Source of the DNA: Kofleriaceae bacterium | GTDB taxonomy: Bacteria; Myxococcota_A; Polyangia; Haliangiales; Haliangiaceae | Direction of reading: 5' to 3' | Length of the DNA: 64,000 nt | NCBI GenBank assembly: GCA_035489015.1 | Contig: DATHKR010000235.1 | Coordinates: 17,029 to 81,028, forward strand | In this document: positions 54,303-58,462 of the stretch, one piece after another | Layout: the number at the start of each line of letters is the position of its first letter | How positions within the stretch are numbered: the stretch's first letter is position 1 | Program-made: the position numbers and the translations under genes | The notes under the pieces: generated by a model | What the model was told of the DNA's origin: nothing | Seen by the model: the letters and a program-made list of their open reading frames with translations, nothing else | Databases searched by the model: none

Positions 54303-54731
54303 ATGCGACCCCAGCCTCTCATCGCGGTGGCCGACGTCGAGGCCAGCAGCCGCTGGTACCAGCGCCTGCTCGGCTGCCAGAGCGCGCACGGCGGGCCCAA
54401 CTACGAGCGCCTGGAGCGCGACGGGGTCCTCGTCCTCCAGCTCCACCGCTGGGAGGTCGAGCATCACCACGGCCCGATCGGCGATCCGGCCAGCCGGCCG
54501 TACGGCAACGGGGTGCTGCTCTGGTTCGAGACCGACGAGTTCGACGCCACCATCGCCCGCGCCGTGGCGCTGGGCGCCGAGATGGTCCTGGCGCCGCACC
54601 GCAACCCGCCTTCGGGCGACGGCGGCCCGGATCACCGCGAGTGCTGGGTGCGCGATCTCGACGGGTACGTGGTGGTGCTGGCCAGCCCGGACGGCGAGGC
54701 GAGCGCCAGCGGGATCAGCGGACCGGGCTGA
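54303..54731 (+). CDS. VOC (glyoxalase / bleomycin-resistance) family protein
   Basis: 3' part of track ORF 53343..54731. ATG 54303 (MRPQPLIAVADVEASSRWYQRLLG...). Also ECWVRDLDGYVVVL. Confidence 0.75.
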   Translation: MRPQPLIAVADVEASSRWYQRLLGCQSAHGGPNYERLERDGVLVLQLHRWEVEHHHGPIGDPASRPYGNGVLLWFETDEFDATIARAVALGAEMVLAPHRNPPSGDGGPDHRECWVRDLDGYVVVLASPDGEASASGISGPG

Positions 54732-55236
54732 GCTGCCCGCCCTGGAGCGGGATCGGCACCTTGACCAGGATGCCGATCTCGCCGGTGAAGCGCTCCTCGT
54801 CGCCGACGTCGCCGAACCGGATGACCGGGCCGCCGTAGACCGTCAGCCAGGCGCCGGTCAGGACCAGCCGGCCCCGCATGCCGAACCGAGTCTCGTCTCC
54901 GCCCAGCTCCATCACCGGCCCCAGGTCGACCCCGACCATCGAGTAGCCGCCCTCGACCCCGAGCGAGAGCCGGGTGGTGTCGCGCCGGAAGTCGCGCAGG
55001 CCGTCGGCGTAGACGCCGTACCAGTTGCCGCGGCGGAACAGCCGCGCGGCGCTGACCTCGGCGCCGAGCATGAAGTCGGCCACCGCCTCCTCGATGACCG
55101 AGCCGACGTTCACGCCCGACACCAGGTACCACTCGGCGTCCGGGCCGACGTCGGCGCCCGCGCGGCCCGGCGCCGCCCCGATCGCCGCGGCGACGGCGAC
55201 ACCGAGCGCCGCTCGCCTGATCGCAGCCGGCGTCAT
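54715..55236 (-). CDS. Small exported beta-rich protein (possible small beta-barrel)
   Basis: 3' part of track ORF 54715..56724. ATG 55236 overlaps the upstream kinase stop as ATGA. Signal peptide AALGVAVAAAIGAAPGRAGA. Alternating Gly/aromatic strands. Confidence 0.55.
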   Translation of the reverse strand: MTPAAIRRAALGVAVAAAIGAAPGRAGADVGPDAEWYLVSGVNVGSVIEEAVADFMLGAEVSAARLFRRGNWYGVYADGLRDFRRDTTRLSLGVEGGYSMVGVDLGPVMELGGDETRFGMRGRLVLTGAWLTVYGGPVIRFGDVGDEERFTGEIGILVKVPIPLQGGQLSPVR

Positions 55237-56789: not shown

Positions 56790-58462
56790 GCGGGTCCCCT
56801 CTTGCGCCACCGGCCCGGGCGATCCTCGCTCACGGCCTGGCGCGGGACATAGACGAACAGGCACTCGCCGCCGGGGCCGAAATCGAAGGCGACTGCCCGA
56901 GGACACTCGTGGGTTCCGAGCGCGACGAGGTGATCGCCGACCGGGAAGACGTGGTGACCGGCGGCCGGGCTGCCGAACTGCACCTGCGCGCTGGCGATCG
57001 GGATCTGGTTGGGGGTGACGAGCTCGATGCCGCCCGAGCTGTCGAGCTGGACGGCGCCGGTGGCGCGGCCGCCGCTCTTGCGGACGAAGCAGTTGAGGCC
57101 GCGGACGTGGATGGTGAAGTGTCCGAGCGCCGGCACCAGCGACACCCGCAGCCGCACCCGCCCGCCGACGCTGGTCATGTCGACCGAGCCCTCGGCGTTC
57201 ATGGCGACGAACAGGCCCGTGCGATCGCCGAGCGGCTGCGGCGTGGCCGTCACCGCCAGGCGGTGGGGCGGGCCGCTCGGGGCATTGCCGGCCGCCGAGC
57301 TCGCCACCGGGCGGGTCATCGGTGCGCCGGCCGGCGGCGCCGGCACGATCGGCGGCGCGCTGGGCGCCGGGCGCGTCTCGGCCGCCGACTTCCCCTTCAT
57401 CGCGGCGGCGGCGGCGTCCTCCGGCTCGGTGGTCGCCGACGGGTGCTCGGCCGGCTGCTTCGGCACCGGCGTGAGGGTGGGCGGCTCGAGCGGGAGGCGC
57501 CGGCGCGAGCTCTTGCTCTCGAACGCGCGCAGGAGGTCCTTGGCGAACGCGCCGGCCCGGGTCGGCCGCGCGGTCGGATCGACGCTGAGCGCCTGCTTGA
57601 GCAGCGTCGCGAGCGCCCCGGGCAGCTCGAACCCTCGCATCACCTCGTCGACCAGCGCGTCGCCGGTGGCGCGCTGGCGGTACGCCTCGGCCGGGTCGTT
57701 GCTGGAGAACAGGCAGCGACCGGTCAGCATGTAGACCGCGACCAGCGCGAACGAGAAGATGTCCGACGCCGGCGTGACCGGCTGGCCGACCAGCTGCTCG
57801 GGCGCGGCCCACAGGCCGGAGTACATGAGCAGCCGGCGCCCGGCGACCACGTGGGTGTCGCCGGCGCGGTTGGCCAGCCCCAGGCTGTCGAGCGCGAGCG
57901 ACTTGGCGATTCCGAAGTCGGCCAGCTTGGGGGCGCGGGTGCGGCCCGAGGTGCCGAACAGGATGTTCTTCGGCTTGATGTCGCGGTGGATGATGTCGTT
58001 GGCGTGCGCCTCGTCGAGCGCGCCGCAGATCGCGGTCACCACCTGCAGCGCCTCGGACGGGGCCAGGGGGCCCTCGCGGCGGACCAGGTTGGACAGCGTG
58101 CCGCCGTTCATGAACTCCGAGACCTGGAACGGCGGGCCGCCCGGCTCCTTGCCCTCCTCCTGGCCGCCCGGCGACGGCAGGTGGGCGAAGTCGTAGATGC
58201 GCAGCGTGTTGGGGTGGGTCAGCTTGCTGAGCGCGAACGCCTCCTGCACGAAGTGCTCGTAGGTCGTCCGGTAGATCCACTCCTTGTCGCGCAGGGTGTG
58301 AAACACCTTGATGCAGACCGGGCGCGACAGGCGCTCGTCCTCGCCGCGGTACACGACGCTGGTGCCGCCGGTCTCGAGCCGCTCCATCACTCGATAGCGA
58401 TCCAGGACCTTGTCGCCCAGCGAGAGCGGATCGGTCATGGACGGGCTATCGGGTTGCGTCAT
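56786..58462 (-). CDS. Cytoplasmic Ser/Thr kinase with Pro/Ala linker and C-terminal beta-rich (weakly FHA-like) domain
   Basis: 3' part of track ORF 56786..58642. ATG 58462 (MTQPDSPSMTDPLSLGDKVLDRYRV; alternative ATG at 58438). Motifs ETGGTSVV, VCIKVF, HRDIKPKN, DFGIAK, AAPEQ. C-terminus HFTIHVRGLNCFVRKSGG...IELVTPN. Confidence 0.88.
   Translation of the reverse strand: MTQPDSPSMTDPLSLGDKVLDRYRVMERLETGGTSVVYRGEDERLSRPVCIKVFHTLRDKEWIYRTTYEHFVQEAFALSKLTHPNTLRIYDFAHLPSPGGQEEGKEPGGPPFQVSEFMNGGTLSNLVRREGPLAPSEALQVVTAICGALDEAHANDIIHRDIKPKNILFGTSGRTRAPKLADFGIAKSLALDSLGLANRAGDTHVVAGRRLLMYSGLWAAPEQLVGQPVTPASDIFSFALVAVYMLTGRCLFSSNDPAEAYRQRATGDALVDEVMRGFELPGALATLLKQALSVDPTARPTRAGAFAKDLLRAFESKSSRRRLPLEPPTLTPVPKQPAEHPSATTEPEDAAAAAMKGKSAAETRPAPSAPPIVPAPPAGAPMTRPVASSAAGNAPSGPPHRLAVTATPQPLGDRTGLFVAMNAEGSVDMTSVGGRVRLRVSLVPALGHFTIHVRGLNCFVRKSGGRATGAVQLDSSGGIELVTPNQIPIASAQVQFGSPAAGHHVFPVGDHLVALGTHECPRAVAFDFGPGGECLFVYVPRQAVSEDRPGRWRKRGPA

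Follow-up and report, generated by a model that had tools for sequence, protein, structure and literature searches.

A stretch of 64,000 nucleotides (nt) from a Kofleriaceae bacterium (assembly GCA_035489015.1, contig DATHKR010000235.1, positions 17,029 to 81,028)—referred to as the window in the following—carries on its minus strand two adjacent genes for protein kinases. The upstream gene encodes K1, a soluble Hanks-type Ser/Thr kinase of 558 aa (56786..58462), and the downstream gene encodes K2, a soluble kinase of 518 aa that belongs to a distinct and strongly conserved family (55233..56789). Together they make up what we describe as a bicistronic operon of the Haliangiales for two non-paralogous cytoplasmic Hanks-type kinases, which most likely—with a confidence a little better than even—are a dedicated pair acting in one pathway. 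The conserved unit is the kinase pair only, the K1–K2 bicistron. A small third gene and a toxin–antitoxin pair that adjoin it in the window are confined to the subclade of this bacterium.

Linkage, spacing and inheritance of the kinase pair

The evidence that carries this description is linkage. A scan for K2 with one genome per species gave 134 relatives, the best 80 of which were kept as genome loci. Five of these end too near K2 for the upstream gene to be tested; in all of the other 75, which stem from distinct species-level metagenome-assembled genomes, a K1 orthologue with both its kinase and its C-terminal domain lies directly upstream of K2 on the same strand. The same picture is obtained from the side of K1: a metagenome scan seeded with its C-terminal domain yielded 80 further loci, and K2 follows directly downstream in all 48 that have downstream sequence. 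All further long contigs with called genes that were examined contain the pair, and so does Haliangium ochraceum DSM 14365 (K1, ACY17395.1; K2, ACY17394.1), whose genus is placed by the NCBI taxonomy within Kofleriaceae, order Haliangiales. Around the pair, the flanks change from lineage to lineage: upstream of K1 there is often a divergent or an unrelated gene, and flanking genes such as PNT, VanW, PlsX and similar are common to at most 7 loci. A first-pass annotation of this DNA had proposed a dedicated two-kinase pair and named normally unlinked orthologues as the observation that would speak against it; no testable locus of either scan shows the two genes apart.

In the window, the stop codon of K1 and the start codon of K2 share an ATGA overlap (56786..56789, minus strand) with a Shine–Dalgarno-like GAGGGG 7–12 nt upstream, and a second ATGA (55233..55236, minus strand) joins the stop of K2 to the start of the small third gene; both are read from the sequence. 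Such four-base overlaps are common in high-GC bacteria and, hence, unremarkable on their own—the signal is the conservation of the gene pair. Across 74 loci, the first ATG of K2 follows the K1 stop at a median distance of 8 nt, and the distance does not exceed 30 nt in 71: it is zero or negative in 13, between 1 and 30 nt in 58, and above 30 nt in 3. Among the 13 loci without a gap, four carry an ATGA, seven a one-nt stop/start overlap (TGATG or TAATG), and in two the genes abut directly. The first-pass annotation had tied its reading to conservation of the ATGA junctions; the tight spacing is indeed kept in the relatives, whereas the literal ATGA is not (4 of 74 loci). By the criterion of spacing—an ATGA in the window, short gaps in its relatives—K1 and K2 would form a translationally coupled operon.

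With a G+C content of about 71%, the window belongs to a kind of DNA in which spurious long open reading frames (ORFs) are common. K1, K2 and the third gene, which encodes 173 aa, are nevertheless real genes and not high-GC artefacts, as follows from their G+C content at third codon positions (GC3; 0.95, 0.97 and 0.97, respectively), from the Pfam kinase scores given below, and from conserved homologues, which number in the hundreds for K1 and for K2 and amount to 21 clusters for the 173-aa ORF. Hence, the three minus-strand genes joined by ATGA overlaps hold up as first annotated, in their coordinates as well as in their reality. The start of K1 is ambiguous: the ATG at 58462 gives 558 aa and the ATG at 58438 gives 550 aa, as in the NCBI entry HTE54907.1. 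Three long ORFs of the region are antisense shadows and not genes, namely, 56759-59464 (plus strand, 901 aa), which overlaps the kinase region, 55284-56852 (plus strand, 522 aa), and 50264-52888 (minus strand, 874 aa).

The best 80 of the 134 K2 relatives are all named Kofleriaceae, Haliangiales, or unresolved Myxococcales or deltaproteobacterial, and they show a graded divergence. The K1–K2 pair is vertically inherited across the Haliangiales. Its parts evolve at different rates: over 67 loci, with the two closest left out, K2 has a median identity of 72% to its counterpart in the window, as against 53% for the kinase domain and 38% for the C-terminal domain of K1. The closest genome has a K2 with 94% identity, while TldD and PmbA, encoded next to the pair, reach 82% and 76%, and the two parts of K1 reach 81% and 78%. 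K2 is under very strong purifying selection and evolves more slowly than the neighbouring housekeeping genes. The K2 family is compact, as judged by searching 1.8 billion representative proteins exhaustively: about 65 clusters, many of them fragments, match below 1e-30, followed by a gap down to generic kinases at about 1e-12. A search with K2 of 72,556 plasmid and 50,697 phage records gave no match. K2 has a lower overall G+C content, and a horizontal origin was considered on this account and rejected—GC3 is 0.97, and the dip sits in the second codon positions (GC2 = 0.37), so that it is explained by the amino acid composition and not by a foreign source.

Three K2 relatives (P0274, P0277, and P0300) have frameshifted translations in which conserved and scrambled stretches alternate, and they were dropped from the alignment; the frameshifts probably derive from error-prone assemblies and inflate the apparent diversity of the family. 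Two deep K2-like branches occur without K1, P0264 (L088:7347-9215) with 50% and P0269 (L087:4622-6598) with 40% identity. Both retain the β insert described below. P0269 has HGD and NFA where K2 has HRD and DFN and is, judging by these motifs, probably a pseudokinase.

Domain architecture of K1 and K2

K1 consists of three parts. Its kinase domain (residues 23–305; 57548..58396, minus strand) matches the Hanks-type profile of Pfam, Pkinase (PF00069), with 122.4 bits at a cut-off of 31.7 bits, and its catalytic motifs are intact and conserved in 40 orthologues: K52, HRD 159–161, DFG 182–184, and APE 220–222. It is followed by a Pro/Ala-rich linker of variable length (residues ~320–399; 57266..57505, minus strand), which is evident from the translation and falls into poorly conserved alignment columns. 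The third part is an all-β domain at the C terminus (residues ~400–539; 56846..57265, minus strand). A transmembrane segment was looked for in K1 and K2 and seen in neither, and the soluble Hanks kinase with a Pro/Ala linker of the first-pass annotation is confirmed by these results.

An AlphaFold2 (AF2) model of the C-terminal domain, calculated from an alignment of 40 orthologues, has a mean predicted local distance difference test (pLDDT) score of 93.3 and places 15 β-strands within about 140 aa. This domain had been described as beta-rich and weakly FHA-like, of which the first part is borne out by the model and the second is not. No FHA match (PF00498 or PF16697) was found in Pfam, neither for full-length K1 at E ≤ 0.1 nor for the isolated domain at E ≤ 10, and the isolated domain matches no other Pfam family either. 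A profile of 21 orthologues gave zero matches at E ≤ 10 against the sequences of the PDB. Foldseek with the high-confidence model reached, at best, E = 0.16 and a TM-score of at most 0.3 against the PDB, with no FHA entry in the top 50, and E = 0.13 against the viral models of BFVD, with nothing below E = 0.1. Also, the 15 strands do not agree with the 11-stranded β-sandwich of FHA domains. An FHA-like assignment is hence rejected, and the C-terminal domain of K1 is an orphan domain without known relatives. It is fused downstream of the kinase domain in 60 of 60 testable metagenome loci and, within the reach of the metagenome search, is known only in the K1 architecture.

K2 is built from one kinase domain, spanning residues ~45 to ~482, over which Foldseek aligns about 440 columns with ordinary kinases. 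It likewise scores above the Pkinase cut-off (72.2 bits), and the match is partial (profile positions 6–167 of 263) because an insert interrupts the kinase domain. The catalytic residues K90, HRD 207–209, N214, and D235 are conserved. Within the family paired with K1, no exchange is seen at K90, H207, D209, or N214, and few or none at R208, at D235, and in the GSGRFA loop. Two motifs deviate from the canonical ones: at least 90% of the family members have DFN for DFG, and SPEQE takes the place of APE. From their motifs, both K1 and K2 look catalytically competent.

The insert of K2 comprises about 75 aa (residues ~270–345; 55755..55982, minus strand) and lies inside the C-lobe, between the SPEQE motif and helix F (GRPADIYSLG), as delimited by profile alignment and the AF2 model. 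Many of its residues are invariant or nearly so in the family alignment. In the model it forms six β-strands with block-mean pLDDT values of about 67–92, mostly 85–92. It has no match in Pfam, and the best PDB sequence match of the K2 profile—PknB of Mycobacterium tuberculosis, with E = 2.5e-12—skips exactly this part (profile positions 308–383). K2 is hence not the bare kinase without a sensor or regulatory domain that the first reading had taken it for. K1 and K2 can be aligned with each other only over 66 aa at the catalytic loop, with 36% identity; a recent tandem duplication as their origin was rejected, as the likeness is confined to this region.

The K2 of the window is a short form. 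Many orthologues (e.g., P0035, P0067, and P0104) carry a long N-terminal extension of low complexity, which opens with a conserved acidic motif of approximately E[DE][FY]x[DE]FEGD[PA]T[SN][IV]NQ (alignment columns ~40–56).

The third gene and the neighbourhood

The small gene behind K2 (54715..55236, minus strand) encodes an exported protein of 173 aa that is specific to this lineage. Its 21 homologue clusters are all at least 68% identical, and a protein of a Kofleriaceae metagenome-assembled genome matches it without a difference. In an alignment of 15 homologues, a variable n/h region is followed by an invariant ARA|DVGP site and a well-conserved mature part that ends in an invariant PLPLQGGxLSPVR; the hydrophobic maximum lies at residues 4–22. 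On this heuristic reading of the alignment, the predicted Sec signal peptide (about 55153-55236) is plausible, in agreement with the first-pass annotation. The barrel-like character suggested along with it finds no counterpart: there is no match to an outer-membrane protein profile in Pfam, and the protein ends in LSPVR(D) instead of the Phe or Trp of an aromatic C-terminal β-signal, both of which speak against an outer-membrane β-barrel. No family was found in Pfam (even at E ≤ 10), NCBIfam, or PADLOC.

This gene is present in only 2 of the 76 genome loci with sequence downstream of K2; a hidden Markov model of the family, run against all ORFs of the genome loci, matched only L001 and L002. 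Within the subclade of the window, its ATGA overlap with K2 recurs in the contigs L089, L090, and L091. Elsewhere, other genes take its position, and clustering of the downstream ORFs led us to reject a universal third gene in favour of several unrelated, lineage-specific ones. In L003, L004 (L004:11441-12181, plus strand), L005, and L007, a few nt separate the K2 stop from the gene for a Cys-rich, YkgJ-like protein (about 246 aa), and a beta-rich protein of 172 aa takes the same place in L043 (L043:11533-12051, plus strand), L050, and L057. The latter has short motifs in common with the 173-aa protein of the window, but homology is not established by hhalign, which returned a probability of 7.9%. 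Other lineages have a convergent gene after K2, for example, for a transhydrogenase or VanW. The three-gene cassette of the first-pass annotation hence dissolves into a conserved pair with changing company.

Upstream of K1 lies a type II toxin–antitoxin (TA) pair of the RES-Xre type, as had been proposed, and Pfam confirms both components (RES, 97.8 bits; Xre_MbcA_ParS_C, 61 bits; Xre-like-HTH, 38.8 bits; all above cut-off), whereas the NCBIfam model Xre_ParS stays with 38.6 below its cut-off of 90. The RES toxin gene (58682..59377, minus strand) encodes 231 aa from a GTG at 59377, a start taken from relatives and the sequence, and its stop at 58682 is 219 nt upstream of the K1 start. The gene of the Xre/ParS-type antitoxin (59409..59858, minus strand) precedes it with a 31-nt spacer (Xre stop at 59409-59411), in the order that is typical of these systems. 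Its longest ORF has 149 aa, and the antitoxin may rather comprise 112 aa from a GTG at 59747, the length at which relatives are called; the overlap of 140 nt between the longest RES and Xre ORFs arises from upstream alternative starts. Of the 60 loci in which 2 kb or more are available upstream of K1, one has RES/Xre genes, and these are confined to the subclade of the window, where the order is Xre-RES-K1-K2-small protein, convergent with PmbA-TldD. In L089, which is a contig from a close relative, RES and K1 are separated by a response-regulator gene in the opposite orientation. RES-Xre adjoins the kinase module but does not belong to it.

The other genes next to K1–K2 are of housekeeping type and include TldD/PmbA, a glyoxalase, an NHL protein, and a response regulator, among others. 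The TldD/PmbA protease gene pair (51362-54294, plus strand) converges on the kinase genes and is syntenic only in the subclade of the window. A gene of the glyoxalase/VOC family (54306-54731, plus strand) converges on the 173-aa gene, and their 3′ ends overlap by 17 nt. In the NHL-repeat protein (60043-61251, minus strand), a probable signal or lipoprotein region is followed by a long tract of poly-Gly and poly-Asp. At 43284-45923 (minus), 47439-48698 (minus), and 48798-50270 (plus), the window holds genes for two more Hanks-type kinases, of which one carries a PEGA domain at its C terminus, and a further gene for a PEGA-domain protein; this kinase/PEGA gene pair is syntenic in L089–L091.

Function of the pair and comparison with known systems

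What could a conserved pair of unlike kinases be for? With an overlap or no more than about 30 nt between the K1 stop and the K2 start, ribosomes that complete K1 would go straight on to K2, and the synthesis of K2 might be tied to that of K1—which would favour co-assembly or phosphorylation of K2 by K1. K1, the faster-evolving protein with an extra domain on a flexible or disordered linker, might act as an input or targeting subunit. The near-invariant K2, with its β domain beside the substrate-binding region of the C-lobe, might be the output kinase on a conserved cellular target. Co-translation, a physical or enzymatic interaction, the direction from K1 to K2, and a physiological target are what we infer from gene order and sequence. 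Several points weigh against this proposal. Its direction is read from domain content and evolutionary rates alone, and operon linkage can stem from co-regulation only. The gap exceeds 30 nt at 3 of 74 loci, and the gene call of H. ochraceum leaves 96 nt between the two genes. A scan of the locus for promoters and terminators found nothing, the sigma-70 consensus being uninformative in this organism, and the neighbourhoods examined hold no gene for a phosphatase, an FHA protein, or an obvious substrate. Last, the K2-like proteins at 50% and 40% identity without K1 indicate that K2-type kinases can exist alone. This last point would suit two kinases that are co-expressed from a shared promoter and functionally independent, each with its own substrates and forming neither a cascade nor a complex. 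The lack of any relation between K1 and K2 beyond the kinase fold and their very different evolutionary rates fit such independence as well. However, more than 120 loci keep the linkage without exception while the surroundings reshuffle, the spacing is consistently minimal, and the C-terminal domain of K1 is found in no other architecture, which together exceeds what co-regulation usually preserves across an order. For these reasons, K1 and K2 seem to work together and not merely to be regulated together, and we regard independent kinases as rather unlikely.

A stronger form of the dedicated pair would be an obligate heteromeric kinase that is found only in Haliangiales, uses the C-terminal β domain of K1 and the β insert of K2, which would then be new folds, for assembly or substrate docking, and controls a core process. 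Control of a core conserved process by such a complex would explain why K2 evolves more slowly than its housekeeping neighbours; we offer this form tentatively, as possible and short of probable. By virtue of its DFN motif and its β domain, K2 could also be a pseudokinase or scaffold that serves K1 as an allosteric partner or as a platform for docking and is not an active enzyme. The Asn that replaces the DFG glycine in nearly the whole family, the loss of the catalytic-loop Arg and the Mg-binding Asp in the distant, unpaired P0269, and the extreme conservation of K2, which fits a protein with multiple interfaces, all point this way. But pseudokinases usually miss at least one of the catalytic residues that are invariant or nearly so in the paired family, from K90 to D235 and including the GSGRFA loop, which renders this role for K2 improbable. 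For the subclade of the window only, the exported 173-aa protein might have been recruited as a third component—for example, as an envelope or periplasmic factor made in step with the kinases. Its gene overlaps K2 by an ATGA in all subclade contigs, its mature domain is strongly conserved, and other lineages also put a different small gene a few nt from the K2 stop; yet the gene is absent from most of the order, the protein has no family assignment and resides in another compartment than the two cytoplasmic kinases, and four-base overlaps are, as said, common in high-GC genomes. We hold such a recruitment to be very improbable. Hardly any weight can be given to the remaining proposal, in which K1, K2, and the exported protein are an anti-phage or TA-associated defence cassette working with RES-Xre. 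It draws on the toxin gene 219 nt upstream, on the gene order that recurs in the subclade, and on the PADLOC kinase models PD-T4-6 and mad6, which match K1 with E = 1e-57 to 1e-49. These matches are limited to the generic kinase domain, however, and the NCBIfam scores fall far below cut-off. Other loci nearly always lack RES/Xre (found in 1 of 60) and the small protein (2 of 76), in L089 a response regulator on the opposite strand parts RES from K1, the neighbouring genes are of housekeeping type, and K2 has no match in plasmid or phage records. The pair also diverges in a graded fashion over one order and evolves very slowly—defence genes typically show the opposite pattern. The evidence is, hence, strongly against a defence cassette: we see no sign of an anti-phage role for K1–K2, and the link to a defence island drawn by the first-pass annotation is not sustained. 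Closeness to a toxin–antitoxin pair is not in itself evidence of a defence function.

Among known systems, the dedicated pair of K1 and K2 is most readily compared with pknA-pknB of Actinobacteria such as M. tuberculosis and Corynebacterium, where two different Hanks kinase genes are likewise adjacent, co-directional, and conserved over a large clade. Both PknA and PknB are receptor kinases of the membrane, PASTA repeats forming the extracellular part of PknB, and their genes belong to a larger operon with those of PstP, RodA, PbpA, and FhaA/B. K1 and K2, on the contrary, are soluble, have orphan β domains as their extra domains, and are linked to no phosphatase, FHA, or cell-wall gene, so that the likeness is one of gene order only. 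Neither K1 nor K2 has a PASTA match in Pfam, and both were rejected as PknB/Stk1 PASTA kinases: the cut-off of NCBIfam NF033483 is 450, and K1 reaches 177.9 and K2 60.2 bits. In M. tuberculosis, PknA and PknB phosphorylate each other (PMC6213207). The best functional analogy for an action of K1 on K2 might be found in Myxococcus xanthus, where Pkn8 phosphorylates Pkn14 in a cascade on to MrpC (PMC6213207): here, one Hanks kinase acts on a second, soluble kinase with its own target. Pkn8 is, however, a membrane kinase, and the review cited reports neither gene adjacency nor translational coupling for the two. The systems are also unlikely to be orthologous, as the K2 family has no close relative beyond the Haliangiales and a few deep branches; the empty range between about 1e-30 and about 1e-12 outside the family argues against an orthologue of Pkn8 or Pkn14 from Myxococcus.

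Other likenesses are those of a common fold. The defence kinases PD-T4-6, Stk2, MAD6 of MADS, and PglW of BREX share the kinase fold, so that their models match K1 and K2. Their companion genes are absent at K1–K2, which spread vertically and order-wide, and an assignment was rejected for MAD6 (121 bits for K1 and 31 bits for K2; cut-off 460) as well as for PglW (60 and 18 bits; cut-off 990). K1 and K2 fall into none of the other curated equivalog families of NCBIfam either. The genes at 58682-59858 match models of RES-Xre systems of the ParST or MbcTA type, with the antitoxin upstream of the toxin. The top Foldseek matches of the K2 model are the receptor tyrosine kinases VEGFR2, KIT, and FGFR (E about 1e-9), which illustrate that the kinase fold tolerates inserted segments. 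Their kinase insert, for the most part disordered, sits between the two lobes, whereas that of K2 is a folded unit of six strands after the APE motif and before helix F; the identity is 12–15%. Our literature searches found no paper that names the H. ochraceum proteins ACY17395/ACY17394 or the proteins described here, and general searches gave reviews only.

Tandem kinases and kinase cascades are known already; new is a conserved tandem kinase operon with a distinctive and undescribed domain architecture. To our knowledge, myxobacteria encode hundreds of Hanks-type kinases, almost none of which has a known partner or target. The linkage of K1 and K2 across a whole order amid changing surroundings is rare genomic evidence for a dedicated kinase–kinase relationship, and the pair is accessible in the cultured H. 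ochraceum DSM 14365. It also brings with it two domains without known relatives, the C-terminal β domain of K1 and the insert of K2, and the slowness with which K2 evolves suggests that its target is important and conserved. If the two kinases do form an obligate complex, this would be a new architecture of bacterial Hanks-kinase signalling, akin to a hard-wired two-tier module.

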